Assembly: GCA_964372855.1 (NCBI GenBank)
Contig: CAYJRY010000001.1
Coordinates: 18,794-82,793 of the forward strand
Length of the DNA stretch: 64,000 nucleotides
Direction: 5' to 3'
Origin: an uncultured Gammaproteobacteria bacterium
Lineage (GTDB): Bacteria; Patescibacteriota; Microgenomatia; Levybacterales; UBA12049
Position 1 is the stretch's first letter. Each line of letters opens with the position of its first letter. Below, in pieces: positions 9,711 to 59,079 of the stretch. A program made the position numbers and the translations under genes. The notes below the pieces were generated by a model. It was not told where the DNA came from, ran no database searches, and saw nothing but the letters and a program-made list of their open reading frames with translations.

Positions 9711-9711
9711 C

Positions 9712-26142: not shown

Positions 26143-26175
26143 AATTATAAGAGAAAGACTTATTAAAAATATAGT

Positions 26176-26730: not shown

Positions 26731-26775
26731 AAATAAATCAATATTAACAAATATTAAATCGTAATACCATATATG

Positions 26776-39146: not shown

Positions 39147-40310
39147 CTACAATCTTCTCAATCTTACTCTACTCCTGTAAACTAAATAGTAAACCTCATT
39201 GACTGTGTAAACTCCAACAATAAATTGAACAGGAAGAAGAATAAGAAGAAATCGTGACGATACAACACCCAGTGAAAGAAATATTTCATATATAAATATC
39301 CATATTAGAAGAAATAATATTTTTGATGAAAGTTTTATGATATTTAATCCCGCCAACAAAATAAGAAAAAATGGCAATAATGTAAAGATTGGCCAGGTTA
39401 TTTGCCAGTCATCAGCAGTTAATATCTTCATCTCACCCCACCAAGATTGCCATTGATTAAAAAGAACTAACTTCCAGTATGAAAATGGGAAAATGAGTTT
39501 ACTTTGTTGATAAAGAAAAATCCATTTTTGGAATCCTATAAAATCTAAAAACGTATAACCATTTAAAAAAGTTTTTATATAAGAAAATATCAAAATCATT
39601 GCCGTTATTGGAAGAGTCATTAAAAAAAATATTAAATTTTTGTGAAGTTTATTTAATGCTAAAAATATGGAGCAACAAGCAATAAGCAGTATTCCTGGAA
39701 CAACAGTTTTTGTTGCCATTACAAGCCCTATGGAAATTGATGTAAGAAAAAAACTTCCCTTTTTATACCCTCTTAGAAAAAAATAAAGAGCAAAGAGAAC
39801 AAATGGTAACTGAATAATATCTAAAAGAGGAGTAAAAATAAGCTGGTTAATAAAAATCTTTTCAAATGACAGAAGGACTAATGGAATAATAGCAATTATT
39901 TTACTACCTAAAACGACATATCCTAATAGCCATAAACTATAAAGTGTAATTATTCCAAATGGAATTACAATAAAGCTATCATTCTTAAAAAGATATATTG
40001 ATAATGCTATAAAATATTTACCAAGTGGCGTATGTTCGGAGTTTACTAGAATCGGATCAACGCCCCTTAAGTACGCTCCTGCAGCATAACTAAATACAGT
40101 TTCATCTGGGATTATTCCTGGTTTTTCTTTTTGTCGGTATTGAGAATGGTTAAATGCATTTTCTAGGTTTTTATAATAAGCTTCTGTATACCATCCCCCA
40201 AAATATTTGCTATTATTCTGAACAAAAACAGATCCAATCCTATATATGATTACCAAAAGTAAAGTAAATACAATAATTTTCTTCATTATTGAAATCAGAT
40301 TACAAGTCAA
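39147..40310 (-). CDS. PMT/GT39-like polytopic glycosyltransferase candidate (protein O-mannosyltransferase family), short form
   Basis: 387 aa. The first loop IIPDETVFSYAAGAYLRG...EHTPLGKYFIALSIYLF matches the PMT signatures (FDEVHFG...Y and HPPLGK..IAL). It is a paralog of 56938-59079. Confidence 0.5.
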   Translation of the reverse strand: MTCNLISIMKKIIVFTLLLVIIYRIGSVFVQNNSKYFGGWYTEAYYKNLENAFNHSQYRQKEKPGIIPDETVFSYAAGAYLRGVDPILVNSEHTPLGKYFIALSIYLFKNDSFIVIPFGIITLYSLWLLGYVVLGSKIIAIIPLVLLSFEKIFINQLIFTPLLDIIQLPFVLFALYFFLRGYKKGSFFLTSISIGLVMATKTVVPGILLIACCSIFLALNKLHKNLIFFLMTLPITAMILIFSYIKTFLNGYTFLDFIGFQKWIFLYQQSKLIFPFSYWKLVLFNQWQSWWGEMKILTADDWQITWPIFTLLPFFLILLAGLNIIKLSSKILFLLIWIFIYEIFLSLGVVSSRFLLILLPVQFIVGVYTVNEVYYLVYRSRVRLRRL

Positions 40311-40316
40311 ACTAGC

Positions 40317-41804
40317 CTATGGCTGAAGCTCAAACCACCATCGCGCATATTGGTCATACATGTTAGAAAAAGTAATAGGTTTCCATCCTGCCTTAAGTAT
40401 TGCAGACTCTGATGCGCTTGAAAAATCTACTATGCCAATATTGCTTAATATCGGATACTCACTTTTAAAATTAGTTTTTCTTGGTAATAAGCATTTTTCT
40501 CGCAATCCAATCTTCACACCCCTTTTATTATATTTATGTTTCGCTTCTAGGGCTAAAACAATAGAAAAAGCAGAGCCATTATAGAATGAATGATACTTTT
40601 TCGAACAAGTATATAGTAAGAAACTACTTTTTGGATATTTTTTTTCCAAATCATTTACTCCATTATATATCAACATACTAAATCCATCTTTTTTAAGCTC
40701 AGATGCTGTTCTGGGATATGAAAAAAAAATAATTAAAGGTATTAATATTAAACCAATATAAATTTTTCTATAGTTTAAATTAATAATTGCAAAAGTAGTA
40801 AAAATAAATACAAATGGCCGCAGAAAGTTAAGATATCCGAAAAATCTGGGTCCCCAATAATATCTAAGTAAAATAAAGTTAACTAAAAATGCAACAATAA
40901 GCAAAATTAAATTTATCGATAATTTCTTTTTATAAGCAAACCACAGAAAGAGGATAAAAAACAAGATCATTATTAAACTAGAAAACCAAGACGGAACTCC
41001 TAAGGCATCTGCCCAAAATGCAGGCCAAAAATCTCTCACATAGAATAACCATCTGTTGGGAACATATATAGCATTTTTTCCTTCAGTAATATAATAGAAA
41101 ATATTTCTAGTTGTAAACCAATGGTTATTCATTTCAAATATTAACATTGGGATAAAACTTATGACTACGCCTAAAGCGCTAAATACAAAATTTATGAATT
41201 TTCTTTTATATAAAAAAAGGACAAGCGGAAGGATTAATAATCCACCCATCTGAAAATGTAGATTCATCCCCACTCCTATAACAAAACCAAACAATAAGCT
41301 GAGCCACTGTGATTTCTCTTTAGATATGAGTATTAAAAAAAGCCAGATTGCCAAAGCGGCAAATAAGTTGGTATTATTATGACTAGTTAAATGTGTTGCT
41401 GATATTACTTGTGCAGGAGAAATGGCGGCTATAAAAGAGACGATTAAACCAAAGTTGTCTCCGCCTAAAATTTTACCGATTTTGAACATTACAAAAATGT
41501 ATATCACTGAAATAATACTTAAGTATATCCAAGGAGAATATACAGATGGAAAAATAAGATAAAATAAAATTAATTGATATGCGTACCATGGTCCAAATGT
41601 AAATGGACCAAGAGACGAAAAAGATCCTGTCAGAGGAAACTGTAATTGTCTTGCGCCTTCAATTCCTATTACAGCATCTCTAACTGTTTCCTCACCTAAA
41701 GAATATCTATAAGGGTAATTATAAAATCTTAAAAATGTGCCAAGAATCAATATTCCCAAAAAAATATAGAAATGCAATTTTTGCTTTCTAAGAAAAGTTA
41801 TCAT
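40317..41804 (-). CDS. GT-C-like polytopic membrane protein, member of the D-x-x-R-D first-loop family
   Basis: 495 aa. It has LGEETVRDAVIGIEGA...LTGSFSSLGPFTFGPWYAY, the same loop architecture as 44206, 45718, 47233, 52892 and 61051. Confidence 0.45.
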   Translation of the reverse strand: MITFLRKQKLHFYIFLGILILGTFLRFYNYPYRYSLGEETVRDAVIGIEGARQLQFPLTGSFSSLGPFTFGPWYAYQLILFYLIFPSVYSPWIYLSIISVIYIFVMFKIGKILGGDNFGLIVSFIAAISPAQVISATHLTSHNNTNLFAALAIWLFLILISKEKSQWLSLLFGFVIGVGMNLHFQMGGLLILPLVLFLYKRKFINFVFSALGVVISFIPMLIFEMNNHWFTTRNIFYYITEGKNAIYVPNRWLFYVRDFWPAFWADALGVPSWFSSLIMILFFILFLWFAYKKKLSINLILLIVAFLVNFILLRYYWGPRFFGYLNFLRPFVFIFTTFAIINLNYRKIYIGLILIPLIIFFSYPRTASELKKDGFSMLIYNGVNDLEKKYPKSSFLLYTCSKKYHSFYNGSAFSIVLALEAKHKYNKRGVKIGLREKCLLPRKTNFKSEYPILSNIGIVDFSSASESAILKAGWKPITFSNMYDQYARWWFELQP

Positions 41805-42568
41805 AAAATCCTAAGATACTTAAGGTAAGAAACCGGAAATCTTAATGCTGAAAAAAACGAAAAAACAAATCCAGGGAATACATCCATAAATCCCTTATGT
41901 CTAATATATGTAGTTAAAAACCAATGAACAGGCTTAATCAACAAATAAACTAATCCATAATAGAAAATGTAGATAATGTTTTTATTTTTTAATTTATTTT
42001 TAAGCTGCGAAGAAAGAAGATCGCAATACCTAGTCCATTTATGTATATAATCGCCAAATCCTTTGTAAGGATAGTGAAGGAGAGGGTGGATCAAATATCC
42101 TACTTTTCCATCTATTATTGCCTGTTCATGAACATCTCTTTGAGGTAAATATCCCTTTCCTTTACGATACAACCTTAGGGTATAATCTGGATATTGTCCT
42201 CCTTTAGTTAAAAATCTTCCCAAAAACCAATTTTTTCTTGGAATCCAATATCCGCTTACGCGGGAATTTCCAATTTTTTCTTTTATCTCTCTAGCAAGAT
42301 CTGATGTTACCCTTTCGTCTGCATCCAGCTGAAGAATCCAATCTTTTGTTGCCATATCTATTGCTATTTGCTTATTAATATGAAATATTGGTTTGTTGTT
42401 TGTAATTTTTACGCGAGCATTGAATTTTTTTGCAATTTCAACTGTATTATCGGTAGATAAACCATCTACAACAACAATTTCATCTGCTAAATCTTTTACT
42501 AATTCAAGACAATCTTCTATGTTTTTCTCCTCGTTATAGGTTGCCAAAACTATCGAAAGCGATGCCAT
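41801..42568 (-). CDS. GT2-family glycosyltransferase
   Basis: 255 aa. It has SIVLATYNEEKNIEDCLE...IVVVDGLSTDNTVEIAK and LDADER motifs. Confidence 0.6.
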   Translation of the reverse strand: MASLSIVLATYNEEKNIEDCLELVKDLADEIVVVDGLSTDNTVEIAKKFNARVKITNNKPIFHINKQIAIDMATKDWILQLDADERVTSDLAREIKEKIGNSRVSGYWIPRKNWFLGRFLTKGGQYPDYTLRLYRKGKGYLPQRDVHEQAIIDGKVGYLIHPLLHYPYKGFGDYIHKWTRYCDLLSSQLKNKLKNKNIIYIFYYGLVYLLIKPVHWFLTTYIRHKGFMDVFPGFVFSFFSALRFPVSYLKYLRIL

Positions 42569-44205
42569 ATGTTTATTCTATTAAGTATAACTAAACTCAA
42601 TATGAATAACAAACTAAGTCCACTTATAATATTAGCTACCATTCTAAACTTTGTTTCTGAAAACTTTACTAAAATGTCATGTTTTCCTTTTTCTAAATAA
42701 AAAGTCATAAGACCTCTATTTGCAGGGTCTTGGAATTCAAGATCATTAATATCAACTTTTTTATTGTCTATAAAAACATTCCATCCAGGGAAATATAACG
42801 TGTTTACTCTTATTCTTGATTTTTCCTCAGAAAATATTTTATATCTATGAATGGTTGAGTTTCTCATTGATTCGATTATTTTAGCCCTACCAGAAATTAC
42901 TTCCATATTGGATTTAGCTGGCTTCTCCATAAACCTTACCGACCAAATTGGCGCACTTTCACCCGTATCGGTTGTTCCATAATAAATGCCCGTATAGAAA
43001 GTCTCTGGTTTTTGAAGATAACCGTTTGCATGCCAATAATTTCGGTTAAAAAACAAAATTGCAAAAATAATACAGACGGTAAAGAGTCTAATTTTTTTAG
43101 CAATTGTATAAATTGCTACTGCTCCGATCACTGATGATGCAAAAACAATTACTGACAGAAATCTCCATGGAAACTGGAATTTCTGAATTAGAGTGATACT
43201 CTCCCATAAAAATTTTGAATTTGGTGTCATAATAAAAAGTGCAAAAATAAAAATAAACAAAAATCCTATTGATAAAAACCAAAGATTATTTTTAGTTTTA
43301 TATAAAATATAAGTTGCAGGTAAGGAAATGATTATTAAAAACCAGTGAATGATTCCAACCTGAACACTAAATACTCCGGTTCCTCCATAGCTCCATTGCC
43401 CATAAAGAAAATCCCAAAAGTTATTCACAAATCTGGATGTGAAATCTCGACTTATTACGATGTCTCTTAGAGTATATTTTCCTTCAAAAAATGCAGGAAG
43501 AAGAAAAAAAGAAGACAAACCTACACCAAAAGATATGAAATAAGAAGTATAAAGTATGAATTTTTTTTTATATTTGGTTTGCCAAAGAAGATATAAAAAG
43601 TAAAGTAATATTAATGGCATGAACATAATTGTTATGGCATTGTGAGAAAGAATAAGCCCAGCGAGCGAAAAAGAACCCCCGACAAAATATAAAAACTTTG
43701 GTTTTTTAGCTAGCTTTAAGAGAAAATATAAAATAAGTGGTGGAAAAATAAATGCCGTATGCTCTCCTATTGCACCCCTTACATAAAGATCTACAAACCT
43801 ATACGGTGCAAACATGTACAATATTGCCCCCAAAAACGCACTTTTTATCCCCAAAAATTCTTTTAACCATAAATACATTGTTAGACCACTTGCAATAAAA
43901 CTTAATCCAAACACAATCTTTAAACTATCTACCAAAGAAAACCCAATAAAATGAAAAATAGAAGCCATATAGGAGGGCAACGGATACAAAAACATTAATA
44001 TTGGATGACCATAGCCCCAATTCAGGTTTGCTGCCCATCTTGGAATAATATTTCCCTCGGAAAGATTCTTGTAAAAGTTTGCAATTCTAGCCACATGATC
44101 CTGGCCATCATGAGTTATTGGCAAACCAAAATGGAAAAGATCAAACAAAGGAATAACTCCAATTATGATAATTAACAAAAATCCTAAATTTTTAAATCTC
44201 CTCAT
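42550..44205 (-). CDS. Large polytopic membrane protein, YfhO-like GT-C candidate (paralog group Y)
   Basis: 551 aa. It has ITHDGQDHVARIANFYKNLSEGNIIPRWAANLNWGYGHPILMFLYPLPSY, homologous to 29285-31018. It also has a C-terminal soluble domain. Confidence 0.45.
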   Translation of the reverse strand: MRRFKNLGFLLIIIIGVIPLFDLFHFGLPITHDGQDHVARIANFYKNLSEGNIIPRWAANLNWGYGHPILMFLYPLPSYMASIFHFIGFSLVDSLKIVFGLSFIASGLTMYLWLKEFLGIKSAFLGAILYMFAPYRFVDLYVRGAIGEHTAFIFPPLILYFLLKLAKKPKFLYFVGGSFSLAGLILSHNAITIMFMPLILLYFLYLLWQTKYKKKFILYTSYFISFGVGLSSFFLLPAFFEGKYTLRDIVISRDFTSRFVNNFWDFLYGQWSYGGTGVFSVQVGIIHWFLIIISLPATYILYKTKNNLWFLSIGFLFIFIFALFIMTPNSKFLWESITLIQKFQFPWRFLSVIVFASSVIGAVAIYTIAKKIRLFTVCIIFAILFFNRNYWHANGYLQKPETFYTGIYYGTTDTGESAPIWSVRFMEKPAKSNMEVISGRAKIIESMRNSTIHRYKIFSEEKSRIRVNTLYFPGWNVFIDNKKVDINDLEFQDPANRGLMTFYLEKGKHDILVKFSETKFRMVANIISGLSLLFILSLVILNRINIWHRFR

Positions 44206-45714: not shown

Positions 45715-45717
45715 AAT

Positions 45718-47229: not shown

Positions 47230-47232
47230 ACC

Positions 47233-48510: not shown

Positions 48511-48511
48511 A

Positions 48512-50164
48512 TCAATCTTTATGAATAACTCTAATTGCAACTTCTCCATCTGGATAATCGATTCTATGAATAGTTTTATATATTTCGCTAAACTCTGAAT
48601 TGCTTCCAACTAATAGAATATTGTTTTCCTTCTCTTCATAGTAATTAAACGGTCTAAATTCAAAATTTAAAAATTTATTTTGAGCATCCTGAACGCCCGA
48701 CCTAGTTCCTCCTTCTTGTAAATATTTTTCAGGATTATATTTTGAATAAAAAAGAAAAAATATATAGGACTGATCCATAGGCATCCTATTCGAAACAATT
48801 ATCTTATTGTAGTTTTCTCTGACAGACATAAGGTAACTAACTAAATCTCTATATCCATATTGCCAGTATTTTGCGTGAAAATAATTTTGCTGAACAAAAT
48901 ACTGATTGATATAATAAACAAAATTAAAAATGAAAAATGAAAAATATAATCCAAATATTAGATATTTAATCTGTATTTTTGATATTTTATTTTTGATATT
49001 TGATATTGCACTTACGGTTGTAATAATCCCAATTGCTATAAATACTTGAAAAGTGGGCAAAAAGTTTAATGTGCGTACCGCATGAGGAACATCGCTTGTC
49101 ACAGAAGCTGGAATAGGGGCTATTAAAAACCAGCTAAATATAAACGCTTTTGTCTTATTTGGGAAATTACCAAATAATAGCATATATATCCCAATCATCA
49201 AAAATGGTAGCTCCCAAATATATAAAAGTCCCATGTTTGGTGCATGATGACGTGCTATATCGCCTTTTACGAACAACCAATTTAGATCAAAATGGGAAAG
49301 ATAACCAGCAATAATGTTTTTAAAATATGTAAATCGTCTATTGTCTAAAATAAGACCAATATAATCATGATTTTCCCTATTTCGCATAAGTCTTTGTACA
49401 TTTTCCTCAAGAATTGGTGTTCTATTCGCAAGTATGCTTACATCTTGAGCTCTAGACAGTGCTTCTCTATTGGTAAACGTGTAATAAATTATCGGTAATG
49501 AAACAAAAAGACCCAGTATTCCAGCTATTATTATGTATTTTTTTGAAATTAAGAAAAGGTCTTTTCTAAATATAAGAATTAAAGCAGTAAAAAGTAAGGG
49601 GGTGAAAACTTTCTCGCTTTGATATGTATATAAATTTACGCCACCCGCTAATGCAGATAATACTAAAAACCATGGTCTTTTTAATCCCAACAGAAAAAAT
49701 AATGCCGCAAAAACATTGAAAGCAAGCCCAACATTTGATTCAAAAGCAATTCTAGAAAATTGTATATGCCAAGGAGAAACAGCTAAAATAAATGCTGAAA
49801 GTAAGGCAATATTTTTTCTCCCAAAAAGTGTTCTAACCAAAAAGAAAACACCCAAAATAGTAAGTACTCCAAATACAGCAGATGGAATTCTAACTGCAAA
49901 TTCATTTAAACCAAAGATGACTATTGATGGTGCTGATAAGTATACATATAAAGCGGGTTTGTAATCATCAAACGAACGTAAAATAATAGGTAAAAACTCT
50001 CCATATTCATCTCTTCCTGTTTTTAAAATAGAATATGCATTGTATCCAAGAGCAACTTCATCCCAATCAGGAGAAATTGGTACATTTCCTAGTTGCCAAA
50101 ATCGCAAAAAAGATCCTATAAGAATTATAAAGAATAAAATAAAAAACTGAATATGTTTCTTCAT
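48512..50164 (-). CDS. ArnT/GT83-family (PMT_2-type) undecaprenyl-phosphate-sugar dependent glycosyltransferase
   Basis: 550 aa. It has FLRFWQLGNVPISPDWDEVALGYNAYSI...YKPALYVYL...IFGLNEFAVRIPSAVFGVLTILGVFFLVR. This matches the ArnT pattern (WDEARYAEIA...KPPL.YWL...FGxNEFAARLPSAL). Confidence 0.6.
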   Translation of the reverse strand: MKKHIQFFILFFIILIGSFLRFWQLGNVPISPDWDEVALGYNAYSILKTGRDEYGEFLPIILRSFDDYKPALYVYLSAPSIVIFGLNEFAVRIPSAVFGVLTILGVFFLVRTLFGRKNIALLSAFILAVSPWHIQFSRIAFESNVGLAFNVFAALFFLLGLKRPWFLVLSALAGGVNLYTYQSEKVFTPLLFTALILIFRKDLFLISKKYIIIAGILGLFVSLPIIYYTFTNREALSRAQDVSILANRTPILEENVQRLMRNRENHDYIGLILDNRRFTYFKNIIAGYLSHFDLNWLFVKGDIARHHAPNMGLLYIWELPFLMIGIYMLLFGNFPNKTKAFIFSWFLIAPIPASVTSDVPHAVRTLNFLPTFQVFIAIGIITTVSAISNIKNKISKIQIKYLIFGLYFSFFIFNFVYYINQYFVQQNYFHAKYWQYGYRDLVSYLMSVRENYNKIIVSNRMPMDQSYIFFLFYSKYNPEKYLQEGGTRSGVQDAQNKFLNFEFRPFNYYEEKENNILLVGSNSEFSEIYKTIHRIDYPDGEVAIRVIHKD

Positions 50165-50181
50165 ATGAAGTTTAAACTTGT

Positions 50182-51768
50182 TTATAACCTGTAAGCAACA
50201 AGAATTTCATTTTTATTTAATAGGTAAAATCTTTTTAAAATATCTCCTTTCGGATGAACTTTGCCAGGAGAATCTAAATACAATACCTTTCTTGATCTTG
50301 ATTTTATAGAACTTAGATTATTTGCGAAGCGATATTTTAGGAAACCCGATACCGTAACAAATCCGAATGAATCTCTCTCATAAATCTTACTTTCTCTTAA
50401 GATCTTCGGATCTGCTTTTGTATAAAATGCGTAGTATATATAAGGCCTACCCATATCCGAAGTTATATGAATTTGGTCATAATGATCTTCAACACTTTTA
50501 ACGTATTTTATCGATTCTTTGTAGCCAAATTGCCATTCTCCGGAATACTCATACGGATAATGAATGTAATAACCATGAAGATAATATAAAATATTAAATA
50601 TAAAAAATAAAAAACACAAAGAAAATATTAAATATTTAATTTGTATTTTTAATATTTGATGTTTTATGTTTGATATTGCATTTATAAAAACAATAACTCC
50701 ATATGCAGTGAATATCTGAAAGGTAGGTAAAGTTGCCTCTATTCTTAAAGCATGCGGAGTTTCTCTCGCGGTAGCAGCTGGAATTATACCTGCTAACAAC
50801 CAGACAGGAACTATCCACCAATTTCCCTCACGCTTCCTAAAAAGAAATAAGATACCAGCAACGAAAAAAGGCAATTCAATAATATACAACTGACCAACAT
50901 CTTGAGTAGAAAACTTAGGATTCCCATCCCCCCTTATAAATAGGAAACTTGGATTCAAATTGTCAAAATAATGCTTGATATACTCAACCGCATAAGCAAT
51001 ACGTCTGTTATGTATAATTGGCCATTTGGCATTTTTATCATTCTCTATCTCCTGATTAACTCTTTGTATAACGGCAACATTTGAAAAAATATTTACTTCT
51101 CGGAAACGTAACCGCGCTTGAGGACTTAATAAAAATCCAATTGTTGGAACTAACATCAACAATCCGATTAATGCCGAGATCAATGCTTGTTTTTTTCTCT
51201 CAAAAAGTAATTTTCGAAAGCTAAAAATTAAAACTAAAACTAAAATTGGTGAAACTATTCTTGCTGTATTAAAGGTATACATTGACAAGACAAAGCTTAT
51301 ACTTGATAAAATCAATAACCATCTTCTATTTGCTATCCCTTCCAAAAATAACCAAATGCCCAAAACTATAAAAAAAGTTGCTACGTTTGCCTCAAATGCG
51401 GCTCGAGACAGCATAATATGCCATGGAGAAATCGCAAGCAATAGAGATGCAAAAGACGCATATTTTTCTTTTAGATCAGAATTCCAAAAAATTCTTTTAG
51501 TTAAAAAATAGGTAATTAATACTGTTAAAACGCCAAAAAATGCTGAAGGAAATCTAACTGCAAATTCATTGAGCCCAAATAGCTTGATCGGTAATATATC
51601 CAAGTATGCATAGACAGGGGGTTTAAAATCCCCAAAAGACTCAAGGTAGTTAAGCGGTAAAAATCTTCCGAATTCATCCTTACCATCAATACCCAAAGAG
51701 TAAGAATTGTATCCCCATGCCACTTCATCCCATGTTAGAGAAGGTGGATTATTACCAAGTCTGTACAA
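50182..51768 (-). CDS. ArnT/GT83-family glycosyltransferase (paralog); the N-terminal TM helix is encoded upstream of the annotated ATG with no canonical start
   Basis: It has TWDEVAWGYNSYSL...FKPPVYAYL...LFGLNEFAVRFPSAFFGVLTVL. The reading frame stays open upstream (…[29 protein letters not shown]…) back to an ATT at 51832-51834, which is preceded by an AAGGGAG Shine-Dalgarno. Confidence 0.55.
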   Translation of the reverse strand: MYRLGNNPPSLTWDEVAWGYNSYSLGIDGKDEFGRFLPLNYLESFGDFKPPVYAYLDILPIKLFGLNEFAVRFPSAFFGVLTVLITYFLTKRIFWNSDLKEKYASFASLLLAISPWHIMLSRAAFEANVATFFIVLGIWLFLEGIANRRWLLILSSISFVLSMYTFNTARIVSPILVLVLIFSFRKLLFERKKQALISALIGLLMLVPTIGFLLSPQARLRFREVNIFSNVAVIQRVNQEIENDKNAKWPIIHNRRIAYAVEYIKHYFDNLNPSFLFIRGDGNPKFSTQDVGQLYIIELPFFVAGILFLFRKREGNWWIVPVWLLAGIIPAATARETPHALRIEATLPTFQIFTAYGVIVFINAISNIKHQILKIQIKYLIFSLCFLFFIFNILYYLHGYYIHYPYEYSGEWQFGYKESIKYVKSVEDHYDQIHITSDMGRPYIYYAFYTKADPKILRESKIYERDSFGFVTVSGFLKYRFANNLSSIKSRSRKVLYLDSPGKVHPKGDILKRFYLLNKNEILVAYRL

Positions 51769-51829
51769 TCGAAAAAATGTAGCTAAAAAAACTATTACTG
51801 CTAAAATTAAAATAATATGTTTGTTAAGT

Positions 51830-52507
51830 TTAATATTTTTCTCCCTTTCTTTTTAATAGGAATGAAACAGCCATTGTAAAATTAAATATTTTCTTATGAA
51901 CTATAGAAAAACCGTTTGTACGAATTACTTTTTCTAGATTCTCAGTATTAAATGTATGGATATGAGAATCTCTCCATACTCCGTGTCTCATATTAGTCCA
52001 CCAATGCCAAATTGTCTTAAATAGAAAATTTCCACTATCCATTTCTACAACTGCTATACCATTTGGGTTAAGCACTCTTCCTATTTCTTGTAGAACTTTT
52101 TCTGGAAATTCAACATGTTCTAAAACCTCTGTACAAATAACTAAATCAAATGACTTATCAGCAAAAGGTAGGTTGTGGCCATCGGAATGGATCAATTTTA
52201 GAGATTTATAACGCTTCTTGCCATAATCTATAGCTTTTTTGTAAATATCAACACCTATACATTTAGATTTTGGGTATTGCAACTTAACTTTGGAAAGAAA
52301 CCAACCGCTCGCACATCCAACGTCAAGAATATTTTTAGGATAAATATGAGTTCCCTCGATAAGGCTTAAAACAGTTTTCAATTTTTTAGTGTGCCAAATT
52401 CTCTGAAGTAGATTCTTTGATATCCCGTTTTGATAGTAGTCGGGTGGCACTTGGTGCCAAATTTCCTCTAACTCTTTCTTTGAATTGGTTCCTAACTTAC
52501 TATTCAT
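51830..52507 (-). CDS. Class I SAM-dependent methyltransferase (paralog group A, third copy)
   Basis: 225 aa. It has [11 protein letters not shown] and [49 protein letters not shown]. Confidence 0.65.
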
Positions 52508-52565
52508 ATTTTATTTTCCAAATACCCTGTTGTAAAAATTACGCTACCTATCGAAAATGATTGGC

Positions 52566-52844
52566 TTATTCTACTCTGTCTTTTCTGCCAAACTTTTTGC
52601 ACATCAACGGAACAGATAAGTATATTGGCAAGGGTAGAAACGGCCATCCTTGCATATTCATCCAGGTAAGAAATGGAAATGACTCACTAAAAACATTTTT
52701 ACCAGTTTGAGAAATAGAATAGGCATTATAGATATATCCCATTTCATCATGAGTCACACCGTAAGGAACATCACCAAGCTGCCAAAAGCGGAGAACTATT
52801 GCTAAAAGAAGAATCAGAAAAAGCACTAAATGTCTTTTAAGCAT
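52566..52844 (-). pseudogene. N-terminal fragment of an ArnT/GT83-family glycosyltransferase (truncated after about 90 aa)
   Basis: MLKRHLVLFLILLLAIVLRFWQLGDVPYGVTHDEMGYIYNAYSISQTGKNVFSESFPFL aligns with the N-termini of 48512-50164 and 50182-51768, then stops. No continuation is present. Confidence 0.5.
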
Positions 52845-52891
52845 AAGCAGAAAAAAGCTTCTAATATAATATCATAAGTAACTACATGAGG

Positions 52892-54385
52892 CTACCGAAA
52901 GTGAATCCCTAACTCTATAGATTTTTCATGCTCTATGGCTTGTTCCGCATCAGTTAAAATAAATTTTTCTATTATAAATCCATTTGGGAATTTTTTAGTT
53001 TCACTAGGTTCTTTTAGAATCTTTACCTGAACTTTACGCCACCAGTCATGAGTCATATAAGGATCATCTGCTGGAGGAGGAGCTGCAATTATGTATGTAG
53101 TAGGTTTTTTTGAATATTCAAAAGCTTTTGCTTTTGCTTTATTAAAATTATAGATCATTGCGTATCTTGGTTGATAAGCCAGAGCATCAGGCGCAAAAAC
53201 AAAATAACCAAACTCTCCTCCTTTCTGCCAGTCTACAACAGTATTTGCTACCTCGCTAAGAGCAAGCCACGAATTATAATGTTTACCAATACTTCTTTCA
53301 TCATAATGCATAGTAGAAATAAAATCCGAATAAAAAATTAAAAAGATAAATGGAATAAATAAGAATCTATACTTACTTTTAAGAAATGAGGTAAGCCATA
53401 AGGCAGTTAACGGTATAATCAAATAGACATAATGAAATAGTAAAACTCCTTTGTTAAAAAAGCTAAGGCACATATATCCAAAATAATAGAAGGGGAATAA
53501 AAAATATAATTTTCTTTGCCTGATATTTTTCAATTGCAGGATAGTGGCTATAATAACCACCGCAAAAACAATATAAACAAATAAATCATTTACTTTGTTA
53601 TTAAAAAGCTGTAAAGAAACCGTATTATTAATTCTGTTCTCCACCCACGATCTTATCGTTATAAAAAAATGCAACGATTCTCCAGTTGAAAGTATTGCTT
53701 TTGACATTCTCAAATCATTGCGAAGATCAAAGATAATTAAATTCGAAAGAAACAGGGGAACTAAAATAAAAGCAATTAAATGTCTCCAAAGATTATTTCT
53801 ATAGATTATCCAGATAATTAATAAAGAGGAGAGTATTAAAAATTGAAGTCCTATGCCGATCTCCAGTTGAATAATTAATGCCAGAATTATCAAATGTAAA
53901 GTTAGATATAGCGCTTTTTTGTTTTCTACATATTTATATATAGTAAATAAGAAAACAGGGACAAAAAAGAAAGTTGCTTCCGAATGAAACACTCCGTTCA
54001 GATAGGGAACCATTTTTGTAGAAACGAATAATACATAAACAAATGCAGGGAACATTCTAAGCATTTTCCAAACCATCCAAAAACTACTAATTAAAAAAAC
54101 TGCCGCAAGCATAATCCAAAACCACGCAATTATTACCGGATCCCCATGCCCAATAAGATATGCCGGGTAATTCATATATGTCCAGAGAGGGCCGTGGAAA
54201 AGCCCATTGGTGCTGGATCTGGGGCCAATAAGGACTATCTTCTTTTCATCCAATTCCGAAAGCAAAAGAAAATCTCTAGCAACGTCATTAAAAAAATTTA
54301 CCTCACCATGACGGACGGGATAAGAAGACATATACAAATTAAACAACGTTAGAAGAAACAATGGTAGATAAAATAACTTCCCCAT
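52892..54385 (-). CDS. GT-C-like polytopic membrane protein, D-x-x-R-D family member
   Basis: 497 aa. It has FFNDVARDFLLLSELDEKKIVLIGPRSSTNGLFHGPLWTY and a C-terminal soluble domain with a degenerate Y..KAK...Y...YIIAAPP motif. Confidence 0.4.
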   Translation of the reverse strand: MGKLFYLPLFLLTLFNLYMSSYPVRHGEVNFFNDVARDFLLLSELDEKKIVLIGPRSSTNGLFHGPLWTYMNYPAYLIGHGDPVIIAWFWIMLAAVFLISSFWMVWKMLRMFPAFVYVLFVSTKMVPYLNGVFHSEATFFFVPVFLFTIYKYVENKKALYLTLHLIILALIIQLEIGIGLQFLILSSLLIIWIIYRNNLWRHLIAFILVPLFLSNLIIFDLRNDLRMSKAILSTGESLHFFITIRSWVENRINNTVSLQLFNNKVNDLFVYIVFAVVIIATILQLKNIRQRKLYFLFPFYYFGYMCLSFFNKGVLLFHYVYLIIPLTALWLTSFLKSKYRFLFIPFIFLIFYSDFISTMHYDERSIGKHYNSWLALSEVANTVVDWQKGGEFGYFVFAPDALAYQPRYAMIYNFNKAKAKAFEYSKKPTTYIIAAPPPADDPYMTHDWWRKVQVKILKEPSETKKFPNGFIIEKFILTDAEQAIEHEKSIELGIHFR

Positions 54386-54406
54386 TTTGCAAAGAGAATA
54401 TTTATC

Positions 54407-56923
54407 ATGATACCATATTTCAAAATATATTCTGAGTTAGTTAGAATGAAAAAGTTGTTTAAATCTTTAGATTTTATAGTAATTATTTTCATCTCAATTG
54501 GACTCCTTTATATCTATAGCGATGTTTTACTAAACGGCAAGATTATTTTCCCGTCAAACTTTCTTGCACAATTTTATTCTCCCTGGAGAACAGAAAAATT
54601 CCCAAGCTGGGAAGCAGGAATTCCTCATAAGCCAATCGGGGACGACCAGATTAGACTATTTTATCCCGAACGCACATTTACCAACCTGTTGTTATCTAAA
54701 AATATTCTTCCGCTTTGGAATCCGCATACCTTTTCAGGAACACCATTTCTGGCCGACCTTCAATCTGCAATTTTTTATCCTCCAAATATTCTTTACTTCT
54801 TCTTGCCGCAATTGACAGCATGGCAAATTCTTCTACTCATCCAACCTATCATGGCAACAGCTTTTATGTATATATTTTTAAAAATTTTGGATCTTAAAAA
54901 ACCCGCTGCTTGGCTTGGAGCTATAGCTTTTGGATTCTGTGGTTTTATTTTGGCGTGGAGCCAGGAACATGTAACATCCGGACAAGCTATCTTGTGGCTA
55001 CCGCTAGTAATGTTCGGAATTGAGGGCTATCTTAGACATAGAAAATTAAAATACTACCTAATAGCTATTATTGCGCTGGCGTGTTCTATAGTTGGCGGTT
55101 TTATTCAACAGACTTTTTACGTTTATCTTTTTTCTTTTATATATGTCCTATATAGAATAAATACTTTGCGCCTTAATTTAAGCTACTTATTGAAAGTTAT
55201 GTTTATTTATATTTTCTCTGTATCTCTAACTGCAATACAATTATTTCCATCAATAGAAGCTTTTTTAGAATCCCCCAGAAGCACGTCATCAGCTTGGTAT
55301 TTATTCGAAGGATATCTTCTACCTGTTACTCATATACTCAATGCGTTAGTGCCGGATATTTTTGGAAATCCGGGGACATATAATTTTTTTGGGAGGGGTT
55401 TTTATAGAGAAACTATACTATATATTGGAGTTATTCCTCTATTCCTCGCTACTTATGCTATTTTTAAATCTAAAAAAAATACCATAATTATGTTTTTTAT
55501 TTTTGGCGCAATTTTATCCTTTTTCCTCACAATAGATTCACCTTTCACAAGATGGTTTTTCCGGCTCCCCATCCAATTTCTGAGACCGTTTTTGCCAAGC
55601 CGGATACTTACAATCACCGCTTTTTCTCTTAGCGTACTTTCCGCTTTTGGTTTATCCAAATTAATTAAAGAAAGGAAGAATGACAAGAAAATTCCGTTAT
55701 CTATTATTTTAATATTTTATTTTGCCTTTTTTCTAATAGGAATTTACGCAATTTTATTATTAAAGTTTGGCGATGAATCTTTTTTCAGAGGATTAAATGA
55801 TTACATAATTAGACATAGTTTTTCGCCTACTAGAGACAATGTATTTGTTCTTTTGAAAAATTTAATACTGCCGTTTGCATTTTTTTCCATCTTCGTTCTT
55901 CTTCTAATCTTCAAAAATAAGACTAAATTATTTTTATACGGAGTTGTTTTTCTAACACTATTGAGTCAATTTTATTTTTTGAAAAAATATTCTGTTATTG
56001 GCGAGGCTGAATTTCTTTATCCGAAAAATCCGGTTACTTCTTTTCTCCAATCGAGAAGTTCTTTTGATAGATTTCTGACCTTTCGTGAGTCATTTGAAGA
56101 AAACATATCAACATACTTTGGCATATATTCAGCAGAAGGAGCAAACCCTGTTTTTCCAAGAAGATATGGAGAACTACTTTTTGCTATAAAAAACAATGGG
56201 AAACTGATTAAAGATATCCCTCGTATCGAAGCAAGACTTTCGGAGCTAGGAGATAAAGAAAATCCATTCGAAGATAATAGAAGGCTTCGTTTATTTTCAC
56301 TTCTTGGGATAAAATATATACTCTATTTTGATGATCAAAATCCAAAAAATAGTGGTGCAAATAAATTCTCTGGAAATCTTTTTAAACCTATTTGGCGTCA
56401 TGGTAATTGGTATGGGCTTGAGTATCTTAACAGTTTCCCTAGAGCTTTTTTAGCAAGTAGTATCCATATTGAAAATAATCCTCAAAAAATTTTAGATTTA
56501 ATTTTTGATCCAAAAATAGACCTTTCAACAAGTGTCATTTTGGAAGATAAGCCTCTTGGCATAAAGAGTTCTGGCAAACTTATTAACTTAGAAAAACTTT
56601 CAAAAAATTCATTAGTAAATATTAAATCTTATCAACCTCAAGAAATAATTATCGAGACAAAAACCGATACTCCCCGGATGCTTTTTATTTCGGATAATTT
56701 CTATCCGGGATGGCAAGCTTTTGTTAATGGTAAAGAAACTAAAATTTATCGTACAAACTATACTTTTAGAAGCATTTACCTTTCAGCGGGAAACCACACA
56801 ATAATATTTAAATATAACCCGCAATCATTTAGAATTGGCTCTACAATCTCAATATTTACTGGTTTCATATTAATACTAATTATTTTAATGAACGTTCGCT
56901 CTTCAGCAGCAAGAAAGAGATAG
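54407..56923 (+). CDS. Very large YfhO-like polytopic membrane protein (GT-C candidate); the only plus-strand gene in the 3-prime 35 kb
   Basis: 838 aa (the start is probably the internal MKKLFKSL). It has IGDDQIRLFYPER...LPLWNPHTFSGTPFLADLQSAIFYPPNILYF and about 14 TM helices across the protein. A C-terminal extracytoplasmic domain ends in a TM anchor. Its size and topology match the YfhO family. Confidence 0.45.
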   Translation: MIPYFKIYSELVRMKKLFKSLDFIVIIFISIGLLYIYSDVLLNGKIIFPSNFLAQFYSPWRTEKFPSWEAGIPHKPIGDDQIRLFYPERTFTNLLLSKNILPLWNPHTFSGTPFLADLQSAIFYPPNILYFFLPQLTAWQILLLIQPIMATAFMYIFLKILDLKKPAAWLGAIAFGFCGFILAWSQEHVTSGQAILWLPLVMFGIEGYLRHRKLKYYLIAIIALACSIVGGFIQQTFYVYLFSFIYVLYRINTLRLNLSYLLKVMFIYIFSVSLTAIQLFPSIEAFLESPRSTSSAWYLFEGYLLPVTHILNALVPDIFGNPGTYNFFGRGFYRETILYIGVIPLFLATYAIFKSKKNTIIMFFIFGAILSFFLTIDSPFTRWFFRLPIQFLRPFLPSRILTITAFSLSVLSAFGLSKLIKERKNDKKIPLSIILIFYFAFFLIGIYAILLLKFGDESFFRGLNDYIIRHSFSPTRDNVFVLLKNLILPFAFFSIFVLLLIFKNKTKLFLYGVVFLTLLSQFYFLKKYSVIGEAEFLYPKNPVTSFLQSRSSFDRFLTFRESFEENISTYFGIYSAEGANPVFPRRYGELLFAIKNNGKLIKDIPRIEARLSELGDKENPFEDNRRLRLFSLLGIKYILYFDDQNPKNSGANKFSGNLFKPIWRHGNWYGLEYLNSFPRAFLASSIHIENNPQKILDLIFDPKIDLSTSVILEDKPLGIKSSGKLINLEKLSKNSLVNIKSYQPQEIIIETKTDTPRMLFISDNFYPGWQAFVNGKETKIYRTNYTFRSIYLSAGNHTIIFKYNPQSFRIGSTISIFTGFILILIILMNVRSSAARKR

Positions 56924-56937
56924 GGAGTTTGAGATAA

Positions 56938-59079
56938 TTAGTTACCATCGTATATAGTTATATCTTGACCATCTCTTTTGGATTTTTCAATTACAGTTCT
57001 TATTGTTCTTCCATTCTTGTCTTTAATTTTAATTATTCCCCCATCGTATGCTGATAATATTTTGTCGTATTGCTTTTCCTCCCCTTTAACGCCGTGATAA
57101 TTATAGCTACTGTAAATTCTAGTACAGCATTCTTCGTAGAATAGATTCTGAATGCCCAAAGGCTCGATAAGTGGTGAGTAATAAATCCTAGCTATATGAT
57201 GAATAATTTTTACACCTTTATATGAAAGTATTTTTTCTTTAAGATTATTTGTAAGATTTGTAAATAAGGTAAATAAAGGAGCATCGGAACCTGGAATCAT
57301 ATTTTCAAGGTATGCGTTTTGCAAATGAACATTTTTTACGTATCCTATTTTGCTTAGGAAATCTAGCATCTCATTCTCTTTTTTCAAATCAATTTCTTGA
57401 GGATTAACTGTTATCAAGTAGCCATTAATATCTTCTACTAAAACATTTCCCCCTGAGTCAAGAATTCTTCCTCTCTTTCCTTGAGATATAATAGTCTCCA
57501 CATTATGTTCGGGCAAAAATCCATTCAAAACCAAATCCCAATCCCAAATAATTTTCCATTGGCCGTCTTCTTTAATCAATTCGATACTTTTATTTTCAAA
57601 GAAAGCACCCAGACCTCTTGTTTTATATTTAACTAAAATTTCAACTAAACCTCTATTCGCAAATACTGAAATATCGCGCTTTAATTCTTTTATTTCAATC
57701 GCTGCTACTGTAGCTTTATCCAAAATTCCCTGCGTATGCAAACGAAATTCACCGCGGGACATTTTAGGAAAGGCTAATTTCGCAATATTTTCATGATATA
57801 TATCTTGGAAGTATTGATTAGATAGATTGTAATAAAAATTATTCAAAACCAACTCTGATTTGGGCTGTAGAAAAAACGTGGAATGAACAATACCATAGAA
57901 AATTATTACTACAAAAATCAAGATCTCTTTTCTATTATTAACATAATTAACAACTACCTTAACAAAAAGAAGATAAAGAAAAGGTAAAACAATCATTAAA
58001 TATCTGGGATATGCAGGAATAAAGGTATATACAATAAGAGTCAATAAAGTGAAAATAGAAATACCTTTCCAAAATAGATTAACTCCTTTCTTAAGAAGAA
58101 ATATTATAGAAGTAATTATTCCAATTATGCTAATTGTAGGCCATATAATCCACCATTCAGTAACAGAAGTAAGAGAACCGTCTGAAATATTGGGAAATTT
58201 TCCTAAGAATAATGTTTGCCAAATAGCTTCCTTATGAACAACAACTTGAGACCTTAGGTAAAAATCTACAATATATTTTTGCAAGCTTAAAAAATCTATC
58301 AAGGAATTACCATCAAAAAAGAATTTACCATACGGAATAAGTATTCCAATAAATATTCCGAAAGTAAAAATAATATATTCTTTAATCTTCTTTATATAAA
58401 TAAAAAATCCGCTCTCAAGAAAAAAAATTATAGGCAAAAGAATCGGTGGTTTAGTCTGTGTAAATAACCCTAATGACAAACCAATTAATAAAGAAAGGAT
58501 AAGCGTTTTATTGTTTTTTTTATTTACAAATATAATGAATAAAAATAAATTTACTAGAAGAAAAAACAATTGAGAGATGTCAACCCATGCTTTCCAAAAC
58601 TGATTTATGAAAAGAGGGTCAACAAAAAAAAGCGCTGTGGCAAATAAGGCAAATATACTGCTTCCTAGTAACTTCTTCGAAATAAGAAAAAAAAGAAATA
58701 GAGATCCTATTCCCAAAAAAAGGGCATAATAGGCGGGATTTCTAAAAATTAAAATTGATAAACCAATTAGATATTTTCCTACAGGAGGTGTTTCCGCATT
58801 GAATCCGTCAAGAGAAATTGTATTATTAATAAGACCATATCCAATATAGGAAAATAGCCCATCATCTCCTATAATTCGCTTCGACAAAGGAAGAACCCAT
58901 TGCGAATGCTCAAAACGATCTTTCCAGTAAGGAACATTATAGGCCTCTCTAAAGAAAGCCCTTTTAAAATAAATAATCTGAACAGTTTGTATTAAAATAA
59001 TAAGACAACAAAAAATAACAAGAAGGTACTTACTTCTAGACAATGTTTCAGTAATAAATTTATAAATTTTATTTTGCAT
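56938..59079 (-). CDS. PMT/GT39-like polytopic glycosyltransferase candidate, long form
   Basis: 713 aa. It has IIGDDGLFSYIGYGLINN...AETPPVGKYLIGLSILIF, homologous to 39147-40310 and PMT-like. It has a large C-terminal soluble domain. Confidence 0.5.
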   Translation of the reverse strand: MQNKIYKFITETLSRSKYLLVIFCCLIILIQTVQIIYFKRAFFREAYNVPYWKDRFEHSQWVLPLSKRIIGDDGLFSYIGYGLINNTISLDGFNAETPPVGKYLIGLSILIFRNPAYYALFLGIGSLFLFFLISKKLLGSSIFALFATALFFVDPLFINQFWKAWVDISQLFFLLVNLFLFIIFVNKKNNKTLILSLLIGLSLGLFTQTKPPILLPIIFFLESGFFIYIKKIKEYIIFTFGIFIGILIPYGKFFFDGNSLIDFLSLQKYIVDFYLRSQVVVHKEAIWQTLFLGKFPNISDGSLTSVTEWWIIWPTISIIGIITSIIFLLKKGVNLFWKGISIFTLLTLIVYTFIPAYPRYLMIVLPFLYLLFVKVVVNYVNNRKEILIFVVIIFYGIVHSTFFLQPKSELVLNNFYYNLSNQYFQDIYHENIAKLAFPKMSRGEFRLHTQGILDKATVAAIEIKELKRDISVFANRGLVEILVKYKTRGLGAFFENKSIELIKEDGQWKIIWDWDLVLNGFLPEHNVETIISQGKRGRILDSGGNVLVEDINGYLITVNPQEIDLKKENEMLDFLSKIGYVKNVHLQNAYLENMIPGSDAPLFTLFTNLTNNLKEKILSYKGVKIIHHIARIYYSPLIEPLGIQNLFYEECCTRIYSSYNYHGVKGEEKQYDKILSAYDGGIIKIKDKNGRTIRTVIEKSKRDGQDITIYDGN

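Follow-up and report, generated by a model that had tools for sequence, protein, structure and literature searches.

Most extracytoplasmic glycans are built by GT-C enzymes, in which the attached soluble domain usually sets the substrate, and ArnT, PglB and the Emb proteins carry acceptor-binding domains. The catalytic acidic motif (DE) of the protein O-mannosyltransferases (PMTs) is located in external loop 1 and is represented by D77-E78 in Pmt1 and by D74 in MtPMT. GT-C genes also make up a striking share of the small genomes of Patescibacteria; to our knowledge, the envelopes of these bacteria are almost unstudied. In mycobacteria, many GT-C enzymes (PimE, MptA, MptB, AftA-D, Emb) are encoded together and act sequentially outside the membrane, and Emb and AftD possess C-terminal extracytoplasmic acceptor-binding domains. 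The Gram-positive three-component systems comprise a GT2 of the CsbB/GtrB type, a flippase and a GT-C protein such as YfhO (PgfS/PgfM in streptococci); the GT2 makes a polyprenyl-phosphate sugar, which the GT-C protein transfers outside.

The stretch of DNA analysed here (64,000 nucleotides, hereafter the window) contains about 19 GT-C genes as judged by the reading of open reading frames, 12 of which have a family match (Pfam, in one case NCBIfam). A sequence-only reading had singled out two of the encoded proteins, called here A and B, as PMT-like paralogs of family GT39 taking part in the O-glycosylation of proteins or an S-layer. Both ORFs were found on the minus strand (Table 1), and the motif strings IIPDETVFSYAAGAY...EHTPLGKYFIALS and IIGDDGLFSYIGYG...AETPPVGKYLIGLS are present in the translations of A and B. 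The proteins are true paralogs, with 26% identity over ~306 residues (E 4e-16), and the profiles of their families align over 358 columns with an hhalign probability of 100% (E 1e-38), setting PDET of A against GDDG of B and TPLGKY against PPVGKY. The large extra C-terminal domain noticed in one copy proved to be real and comprises residues from about 382 to 713 of B. According to both the NCBI gene call and the homologs, the probable start of A is ATG 40286, which gives a protein of 379 aa.

Table 1. Features of the A and B loci (positions in the window)
Feature	Position	Strand	Details
GT2, 268 aa	24090-24896	-	Pfam Glycos_transf_2; NCBIfam PpgS-, PgfS-like matches
Two Wzx-type flippase paralogs	24880-26142, 26776-28101	-	Pfam Polysacc_synt, Polysacc_synt_3
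dTDP-sugar-epimerase-like gene	within 24090..28101, between the two flippases	-	Pfam dTDP_sugar_isom
Small secreted DUF5667-like protein, adjoins A	38610..39125	-	Pfam DUF5667 E 0.0017, below cut-off
Protein A, predicted compact GT-C-fold glycosyltransferase	39147..40310	-	ORF of 387 aa from TTG 40310
First external loop of A	40014..40190	-	SQYRQ, PDET, EHTPLGKY; most conserved residues
EHTPLGKY of A	40014-40037		
PDET acidic motif of A	40101-40106		D69-E70 in ORF numbering
GT2, 255 aa	41801..42568	-	Pfam Glycos_transf_2 E 5e-20; kept in A-type and B-type arrays
Tandem ORFs with genuine PMT and PMT_2 matches	48512-50164, 50182-51768	-	WDEV acidic motif; PMT E 4.7e-9 and 2.3e-11; PMT_2 E 1e-14 and 5.4e-14
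YfhO-family GT-C membrane protein, 838 aa	54407..56923	+	Pfam YfhO E 1.4e-21; adjoins B, convergent
Protein B	56938-59079	-	ORF of 713 aa; GT-C core and C-terminal PBP module
GT-C core of B (residues 1-381), paralogous to A	57937..59079	-	
B residues 382-713, extra TM helix, NTF2-like domain and pedestal	56941..57936	-	Pfam, NCBIfam, profile, Foldseek
Extra transmembrane helix of B		-	residues about 383-405
NTF2-like domain of B	57544-57864	-	residues about 406-512
PBP pedestal ('dimerisation') domain of B	56995-57483	-	residues 533-695
ETPPVGKY of B	58771-58794		
GDDG motif of B	58861-58866		D72-D73
Polytopic membrane protein, 661 aa	59069..61054	-	no Pfam match
PMT_2-type GT-C protein, 520 aa	61051..62613	-	Pfam PMT_2 E 1.6e-7; same gene string as B
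GT2, 238 aa, polyprenyl-phosphate-sugar-synthase-like	62595..63311	-	NCBIfam AglJ E 7e-34, PpgS 2e-20, DPhHxTase_Halo

The AF2 models of A and B (pLDDT 94.1 and 92.6) both have the GT-C fold. The proteins show the features of the GT-C superfamily (clan CL0111): the fold is polytopic, the N-terminal module is conserved and the first external loop contains an acidic residue. The features found in common with GT39 are the GT-C fold, 11 transmembrane helices and a PMT as the nearest solved structure. The structural likeness to PMTs is thus upheld as far as the nearest solved fold is concerned, but the identity to Pmt structures is only 13-16%, and for A, the ArnT and AglB structures score less than 1 Z unit from Pmt4. 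Protein A is also much smaller, with ~10 predicted transmembrane helices; we infer that its Arg-rich C-terminus is cytoplasmic.

The assignment to GT39 did not hold up in the profile searches. In Pfam, A and B of the window have no match to PMT, PMT_2 or PMT_4TMC even at E<=10, and for PMT, PMT_4TMC and MIR no match appeared at any threshold. The NCBIfam scan of the two proteins found no GT-C family, including ArnT (GT83), of which the periplasmic domain is also lacking in both. The family profiles, compared with solved structures, retrieved no PMT or other GT-C protein, that of A retrieving nothing at all and that of B only PBPs. Therefore, the assignment of A and B as enzymes is based on the predicted structure and on weak family-level matches. 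Pfam PMT (PF02366) is matched by 16 of the 45 B orthologs, with scores of 25-39 bits (cut-off 22.7) and mostly over profile positions 87-230 only, and PMT_2 by 14; PMT is absent from all A-family members tested, and the C-terminal module PMT_4TMC (PF16192) from all 45 B orthologs. In hhalign comparisons, the A profile gave a marginal match to a single PMT-type paralog (46% probability), and significance against PMT-type proteins was reached only with an alignment of eight paralogs. The local alignment of the B family with this PMT_2-type set (97.6%, E 2.6e-12) begins after the acidic motif, and the global mode places D72-D73 of B on the DE of the PMT-type paralogs of the window in a low-confidence alignment with a probability of 98.7%. 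Judging by the models, the A/B family is closest to protein O-mannosyltransferases among solved structures, yet distinct from GT39, and its membership in GT39 is not demonstrable.

The conservation in A and B clusters in the external loops, with an invariant Asp in loop 1 and P-x-G-K-Y where TM2 starts. The invariant loop-1 columns among 46 sequences of the A family are S48 Q49 Y50 R51 D61 Y67 ... E84 P87 L88 G89 K90 Y91 (379-aa numbering). In the B family (45 homologs), the columns G71, D72, P99, Y103 and G106 do not vary, and D73 and P98 are retained in 90% or more. Of the acidic motif noted by the sequence-only reading, the loop-1 Asp is external and invariant in both families; the second acidic residue varies, being E in the A family and D in the B family. 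Conservation also extends to a beta-hairpin in external loop 4 and, directly ahead of the last core helix, to an invariant Arg with an aromatic residue after it (R345-F346 in A; R359-Y360, within the last external loop, in B). Loop 5 of MtPMT contains an Arg/Tyr pair, R441/Y444, which binds the donor phosphate (PMC12331936); the spacing in A and B is unlike the Arg-x2-Tyr/Phe of that enzyme. Loop 1 also differs from GT39 (yeast Pmt1, Pmt2, Pmt4; M. tuberculosis PMT Rv1002c) by an additional conserved stretch, SQYRQ or HSQW. The conserved motifs of A and B are not due to chance, and loop 1 of A is proposed to be the catalytic and donor-binding loop.

At its C-terminus, B has the whole non-penicillin-binding half of a PBP2a-type class B PBP, but not the transpeptidase. 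The pedestal corresponds to Pfam PBP_dimer (E 2e-13) and is present in all 45 orthologs, while MecA_N was detected in 22 of them. Residues 4-326 of the NCBIfam MecA/PBP2a family align with residues 386-709 of B at 22-25% identity, the B-family profile matches the N-terminal halves of the solved structures of PBP3, PBP2a and PBP5 down to E 6e-22, and Foldseek aligned the module with PBP2a over about 310 columns (E 3e-16). Like the class B1 PBPs (S. aureus PBP2a/MecA, E. faecium PBP5, B. subtilis PBP3), B has a membrane anchor, an NTF2-like extension and the R-G-x-I-x-D and G-x-E...L-x-G-x-x-G motifs of the pedestal, and the residues R536, G537, I539, Y656, G663, E668, L675, G680 and G681 of the class B motifs are invariant in its family. 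Unlike in these PBPs, a predicted 10-helix GT-C enzyme, and not a short cytoplasmic tail, stands ahead of the single anchor helix. The transpeptidase domain (SxxK, SxN, KTG) is missing from B, which ends at residue 713, approximately MecA residue 326, exactly where the PBP transpeptidase would start. No transpeptidase follows B either, since its downstream neighbour is a convergent YfhO gene in the window and a GT4 gene in other genomes. Full-length orthologs are all about 660-735 aa long, and an artefact of a split or truncated gene was ruled out by more than 100 cluster representatives with identical length and end point. A MIR-like or carbohydrate-binding identity of the extra domain was also rejected, the domain being unambiguously PBP-derived. 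When the C-terminal module alone was used for a homolog search, only five fragments were retrieved, all from this family, and true PBPs were absent. Among the matched PBP2a entries are 3zg0 and 3zg5, structures in which muramic acid or a peptidoglycan analogue occupies the allosteric site, located in this non-catalytic half. The origin of the module speaks for a link of B with peptidoglycan and for glycosylation of the cell wall over that of proteins.

The surroundings of A and B contain further components of glycan synthesis. The presence of a polyprenol-P-sugar-synthase-like GT2 and two Wzx-type flippases, named already by the sequence-only reading, was confirmed. The GT2 of 238 aa aligns over its full length with AglJ, PpgS and DPhHxTase_Halo, in all cases under the curated cut-offs, and is a candidate for making the lipid-linked sugar donor. 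The end of the gene for the 661-aa membrane protein, with its stop codon, and the start of B share an 11-nt overlap, so the two are probably co-translated; a homolog of 663 aa (22% identity) lies inside the B cluster of another locus (L002). The tandem ORFs with PMT matches are better PMT candidates than A and B.

In other genomes, the B array consists of Wzx, three GT2s, YfhO, B, GT4, YfhO, GT2, an ortholog of the 238-aa GT2 and PMT, and is complete in a few loci. The contig scan, which depends on exact peptide patterns, returned only 14 loci, and this keeps the synteny counts low. In most orthologous loci, B has YfhO as a flanking gene, and in 7 of the 14 with the whole B gene the uninterrupted order is YfhO, B, a ~355-aa gene and a second YfhO; orthologs of the 238-aa GT2 (59-71% identity) occur in 7 of 16 B loci. 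The neighbourhood is not conserved around the distant B orthologs (L013-L016). The A array comprises PMT, PMT_2, PMT_2, PTPS_related, GT2, DUF5667, A, MptA_B, further GT-C genes, GT4 and Mannosyl_trans2, and in three loci (L018-L020) the immediate upstream neighbour of the A ortholog is DUF5667 or an ORF of 175-177 aa. By their gene content, these long GT-C arrays look like a glycan assembly line; a pmt gene of the GT39 type, in contrast, stands alone. The logic of the three-component systems is the same, since the GT2s of the window match PgfS and PpgS and YfhO genes flank B, but A and B do not belong to the YfhO family and the GT-C genes of this locus are far more numerous. The neighbours of A match the MptA_B, GT87 and Mannosyl_trans2 families and the layout of B resembles that of Emb and AftD, although mycobacteria belong to another phylum and their GT-C enzymes have no detectable orthology with A or B.

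It seems that A and B assemble or decorate a wall glycan outside the cytoplasm, the PBP module anchoring B to the wall machinery; we put the probability of this reading at roughly one half. The cytoplasmic AglJ/PpgS-type GT2 would charge polyprenyl phosphate with a sugar, and the resulting lipid-linked donor would then be flipped across the membrane. With the loop-1 Asp as the catalytic base, A and B would transfer the sugar to a growing cell-envelope glycan at the external face of the membrane, each catalysing one step of an assembly line of many enzymes outside the cytoplasm, analogous to the synthesis of mycobacterial lipomannan and arabinogalactan or to the lumenal ALG enzymes. The PBP module sits where ArnT, PglB and Emb would have their acceptor-binding domains, and most likely tethers B to peptidoglycan or to the machinery of its synthesis. 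With such tethering, the acceptor would be a wall-linked or nascent wall polymer and not a Ser/Thr-rich protein. A more specific version, which we consider speculative and improbable, is that B mimics a class B PBP lacking the transpeptidase: its anchor and pedestal might dock on a SEDS polymerase (FtsW/RodA), or lobes like the allosteric ones of PBP2a might bind the nascent strand, while the GT-C core would glycosylate peptidoglycan or ligate a wall polymer during synthesis. If true, the ultrasmall Patescibacteria would have an LCP-independent way of decorating the wall, with a physical coupling to the polymerisation of peptidoglycan.

The suggestion that A and B are true GT39 PMTs, which like the actinobacterial PMT would use polyprenyl-phosphate-mannose to mannosylate secreted or S-layer proteins at Ser/Thr, agrees with the nearest solved structures, and a protein acceptor is a live alternative given that proteins of the YfhO type, encoded next to B, glycosylate proteins in streptococci (PMC12041528). 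Against it are the lacking PMT, PMT_4TMC and MIR matches, the low identity to Pmt structures, the Z scores of ArnT and AglB close to that of Pmt4 for A, the small size of A, and the origin of the module of B, unparalleled among PMTs, from a peptidoglycan enzyme. The same window offers better PMT candidates, and the search for a Ser/Thr-rich acceptor within it gave none (maximum 30% S+T per 40-aa stretch). With the PBP module, the GT-C arrays and no Ser/Thr-rich ORF in the window, protein or S-layer O-glycosylation in the manner of PMTs is not the best-supported reading, and we regard it as rather unlikely.

The monophosphate donors taken by the closest structures (PMT, ArnT, ALG12) and the tightly conserved neighbour resembling a polyprenyl-monophosphate-sugar synthase also make it quite improbable that A and B act like an oligosaccharyltransferase or ligase, receiving a glycan en bloc from a Wzx-flipped polyprenyl diphosphate, with B as a wall-polymer ligase, unrelated to LCP, onto peptidoglycan. 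Neither an STT3-type C-terminal domain nor a WWDYG-like motif is present in the two proteins, and the window yielded no recognisable initiating phosphoglycosyltransferase. An ArnT-like (GT83) function, in which a membrane lipid or lipoglycan anchor would be glycosylated, is very doubtful: the ArnT match and periplasmic domain are lacking, the PBP module has no obvious role in lipid modification, and lipid A is presumably absent from the host organisms, judging by their Gram-positive-like envelope. B also keeps the anchor, NTF2-like domain and pedestal with class B motifs that would suit a non-catalytic scaffold or regulator binding a SEDS polymerase, its GT-C core being a degenerate pseudo-enzyme. 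However, D72, P99, Y103, R359 and Y360, among others, are invariant in the 45 orthologs and common to the stand-alone A, and this invariance of the external loops, shared with A, is the pattern of an active enzyme, which leaves the scaffold highly improbable. The B fusion provides a concrete and testable connection between the synthesis of peptidoglycan and the glycosylation of the wall in Patescibacteria. The literature search found no description of a GT-C core fused to the entire non-catalytic half of a PBP and no paper on GT-C arrays in Microgenomates.

On the evidence of the models, A and B represent a small, uncharacterised family of compact PMT-like glycosyltransferases of the GT-C fold. 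As was found by the homolog search (E<=1e-3), the family has 601 representatives among 1.84 billion, i.e., ~600 clusters at 50% identity, and occurs in three architectures: the core alone (about 375 aa), the core with NTF2 (about 500 aa) and the core with NTF2 and the pedestal (about 690 aa). Its members are metagenomic, and those with a named organism are Patescibacteria, mostly Microgenomates. Such proteins are currently labelled in the databases as "hypothetical" or "dolichyl-phosphate-mannose-protein mannosyltransferase"; for annotation, it matters that none of the existing labels fits the A/B-type proteins.

The window holds two ORFs, a short one (A) and a long one with an added module derived from a penicillin-binding protein (B), which the sequence-only reading had taken for protein O-mannosyltransferase (PMT, GT39) paralogs serving protein O-glycosylation. 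Both were found in place, and the peptide strings quoted for them occur in both translations; for A, the ATG at 40286, giving 379 aa, is the start preferred by the NCBI gene call and by homologs. As was found by BLASTP, the proteins are paralogs (26% identity over 306 residues, E 4e-16), and an alignment of the A-family and B-family profiles spans 358 columns (probability 100%, E 1e-38), with PDET of A on GDDG of B and TPLGKY on PPVGKY. Across 46 A homologs and 45 B homologs, the first Asp and the P-x-G-K-Y segment show little or no variation, which bears out the motif observation well beyond chance. Other loop residues are equally conserved, namely SQYR or HSQ upstream and, ahead of the final core helix, R-F or R-Y; in A the same holds for a stretch of loop 4 that is rich in Trp. 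Residues 277-299 of this loop (379-aa form) are predicted to form a beta-hairpin, in which N277, W279, Q280, W282, W283, W294 and W298 are invariant and P299 is at least 90% conserved in the A family; the Trp pattern is kept only in part in B. The hairpin recalls the WW-like loop-4 hairpin proposed as acceptor binder in the M. tuberculosis PMT (PMC12331936).

The assignment to PMT did not hold in Pfam, where a threshold as loose as E<=10 yielded no PMT, PMT_2 or PMT_4TMC match for A or B, and no GT-C model of NCBIfam matched them. Against all PDB sequences, the A-family profile gave no match and the B-family profile matched penicillin-binding proteins only. The true Pfam PMT matches of the window are at 48512-50164 and 50182-51768, and four further ORFs match PMT_2 only. 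At the family level, a sequence link of B to PMT/PMT_2 does exist. Sixteen of 45 B orthologs lie above the PMT gathering score and 14 of 45 match PMT_2 (eight of the 14 being listed), mainly in the TM2-TM6 region, and an alignment of the B profile with PMT_2-type paralogs from the window reached E 2.6e-12 and set ETPPVGKYL against YKPALYVYL. A global profile alignment placed D72-D73 of B on WDEV of a Pfam-PMT-positive paralog, with low per-column confidence.

AlphaFold models were built from family alignments (pLDDT 94.1 and pTM 0.93 for A; 92.6 and 0.87 for B). Their Z scores, A before B, were 23.3 and 24.2 with Pmt4, 22.8 and 19.0 with ArnT, 22.5 and 18.7 with AglB, 20.1 and 20.0 with ALG12, 17.7 and 19.6 with Pmt2, and 16.9 and 16.5 with Pmt1. 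The structural side of the proposal thus stood in that a PMT is the closest solved structure for both proteins, but at no more than 13-16% identity, and Pmt4 leads ArnT and AglB by a negligible margin in the case of A. PMTs have been defined by PF02366 with PF16192, 11 helices, a loop-1 catalytic Asp and a loop-5 R-x2-Y (PMC12331936). Compared with this definition, A and B have the fold and lack PMT_4TMC, and the residue-level features are not decisive; we therefore treat them as a PMT-like GT-C family of their own, not as GT39 members. The model of A has ~10 membrane helices and an Arg-rich end, YRSRVRLRRL, which should be cytoplasmic. In B, one extra helix (~383-405) would lead the chain back outside, so that its layout would be PMT-like, with 11 helices and an external C-terminus.

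B is a GT-C core joined to the whole non-catalytic half of a PBP2a-type class B penicillin-binding protein, membrane anchor included. This follows from a Pfam PBP_dimer match at residues 533-695 (E 2e-13), from NCBIfam models that align MecA/PBP2a residues 4-326 with B 386-709, from B-family profile matches to the N-terminal halves of B. subtilis PBP3, PBP2a and E. faecium PBP5 (down to E 6e-22), and from the Foldseek match to PBP2a (E 3e-16, ~310 columns, 22-25% identity). The class B signature is invariant in the B family (R536-G537-x-I539; G663...E668...L675...G680-G681), and B ends where the transpeptidase domain would begin. B is followed by a convergent gene, its length is shared by more than 100 cluster representatives, and MecA_N was found in 22 of 45 orthologs. 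Several matched PBP2a entries contain muramic acid or a peptidoglycan analogue bound at the allosteric site (3zg0, 3zg5), which falls within the corresponding half, making a peptidoglycan-binding role of the module plausible. Judging by the high pTM of the two-domain model, the module may be held in a fixed arrangement above the external face of the core. Acceptor-binding domains hold the corresponding place in ArnT, PglB and Emb. In class B penicillin-binding proteins, anchor and pedestal serve in addition as contacts to the SEDS polymerase. RodA-PBP2 is an example of such contact (PMC10449877).

The recurrent array around B reads Wzx, GT2, GT2, GT2 (~255 aa), YfhO, B, GT4 (~358 aa), YfhO, GT2 (~305 aa), GT2 (238 aa), PMT or PMT_2. 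YfhO, B, a ~355-aa gene (GT4 where Pfam calls exist) and YfhO are adjacent in seven of the 14 loci with a whole B gene; a few have the wider array in full. The window's own B has YfhO, a PMT_2 protein and the 238-aa GT2 as neighbours. This GT2 aligns at full length, below curated cut-offs, with AglJ, PpgS and haloarchaeal Dol-P-hexose transferase, all of them synthases of polyprenyl-phosphate sugars. The stop of a 661-aa membrane ORF overlaps the B start by 11 nt (59069-59079, ATGCAAAATAA), which implies that the two are translationally coupled. Pfam gave no match for the 661-aa protein, to which a protein in the B cluster of another genome (L002) corresponds at 22% identity. In a further locus (L003, 4231-5394), an A-family paralog of 387 aa, with 36% identity to A, stands two genes upstream of B, directly before YfhO, so A- and B-type members can share one operon-like string.

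A orthologs lie in a second conserved array, carried by the window with minor rearrangements: PMT, PMT_2, PMT_2, PTPS_related, GT2, DUF5667, A, MptA_B-like, then two to three more membrane proteins, a PTPS/YfhO-like protein, GT4, Mannosyl_trans2 and GT2. Two of three DUF5667-like paralogs adjoin a compact GT-C gene (A and an MptA-like 378-aa ORF), and DUF5667 or a 175-177-aa ORF is directly upstream of the A ortholog in loci L018-L020; these proteins may be partner or chaperone subunits of compact GT-C enzymes. The G+C content of the window is ~30%, and from ~29 kb to the right end runs a near-continuous series of minus-strand genes for polytopic membrane proteins. By our reading of the ORF list, 29285-63862 contains ~19 polytopic GT-C-type ORFs within 35 kb, all but a few on the minus strand, an array unusually dense for a small genome and conserved in order in other Microgenomates.

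A nucleotide-sugar island occupies 180-24000. Besides the genes tabulated, it includes a DegT aminotransferase, SIS isomerase, GHMP kinase, several epimerases/dehydratases, GT2 and GT4 genes and methyltransferases, an enzyme set that suggests an elaborate, modified glycan.

Features of the window (single numbers are ORF positions)
Feature	Position	Strand	Remark
A	39147-40310	-	387 aa from TTG
B	56938-59079	-	713 aa
DUF5667-like paralogs	38610-39125, 32127-32687, 8052-8651		small, secreted or membrane-anchored
PMT or PMT_2	40317, 45718, 47233, 48512, 50182, 61051		Pfam
PTPS_related	29285, 42550		Pfam
YfhO	54407		Pfam
DUF2079	63332		Pfam; truncated ORF
MptA-like	30994		weak NCBIfam match
Other GT-C-type ORFs	34114, 35513, 36764, 44206, 52892, 59069		no Pfam match
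Sugar N-formyltransferase	180-944		
Transketolase-like pair	941-2676		split
Nucleotidyltransferase-HAD phosphatase fusion	9042-11867		heptose-pathway-like
Sugar C-methyltransferase	11874-13103		

The components named by the sequence-only reading (lipid-sugar synthase, flippases, GT-C transferases) are all in the window, but ~19 GT-C-type ORFs, in orders kept across the group, are unlike a single PMT-type protein-modification step. The array looks like a stepwise extracytoplasmic glycan assembly line, most comparable to mycobacterial lipomannan/arabinogalactan synthesis and to the lumenal ALG enzymes. True protein O-mannosylation by A and B, with a PMT nearest in structure and no Ser/Thr-rich ORF in the 64-kb window, seems rather unlikely. 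The best explanation overall (probability about 0.5) joins active A and B, a polyprenyl-monophosphate sugar donor and a cell-envelope glycan acceptor. We have high confidence that A and B would be active GT-C enzymes and moderate confidence that a neighbouring GT2 would supply the donor; confidence is low to moderate that the acceptor would be this glycan, with the module anchoring B at peptidoglycan or a peptidoglycan synthase.

It is unlikely that B is a transpeptidase-less mimic linking peptidoglycan polymerisation with wall glycosylation. En-bloc transfer of the OST or ligase type is quite unlikely, and ArnT-like lipid glycosylation is very unlikely. A non-catalytic scaffold would have to be reconciled with the conserved Asp and is highly improbable.

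The A/B family is small. An exhaustive phmmer search with B residues 1-405 among 1.84 billion cluster representatives gave 601 at E<=1e-3 and 448 at E<=1e-10. Among the top matches, the fusion length of 640-735 aa predominates, the A-type length of 365-400 aa is frequent, and some proteins have ~490-550 aa, at least one of these being core plus MecA_N alone; this third architecture of ~500 aa is seen in P0364, a family member with the core and an NTF2-like (MecA_N) domain and no pedestal, and the C-terminal parts of the remaining ~490-550-aa proteins have no Pfam match. Public annotations include "hypothetical protein", no report of a GT-C/PBP-pedestal fusion was found in the literature searched, and the family is unclassified. 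It is not a new kind of system, since enzymes of the GT-C class are familiar, as is three-component glycosylation.

The organisms named as sources are Gottesmanbacteria, Levybacteria, Roizmanbacteria and "Patescibacteria group", the first two belonging at NCBI to the Microgenomates group of Patescibacteria. Five contigs, each encoding a B ortholog, bear the title "uncultured Gammaproteobacteria bacterium" or "Candidatus Pacearchaeota archaeon" (L004, L005, L008, L011, L013). The gene order is of Microgenomates type in L004, L005 and L011 and is absent in L008 and L013; the organism labels of all five are probably wrong.
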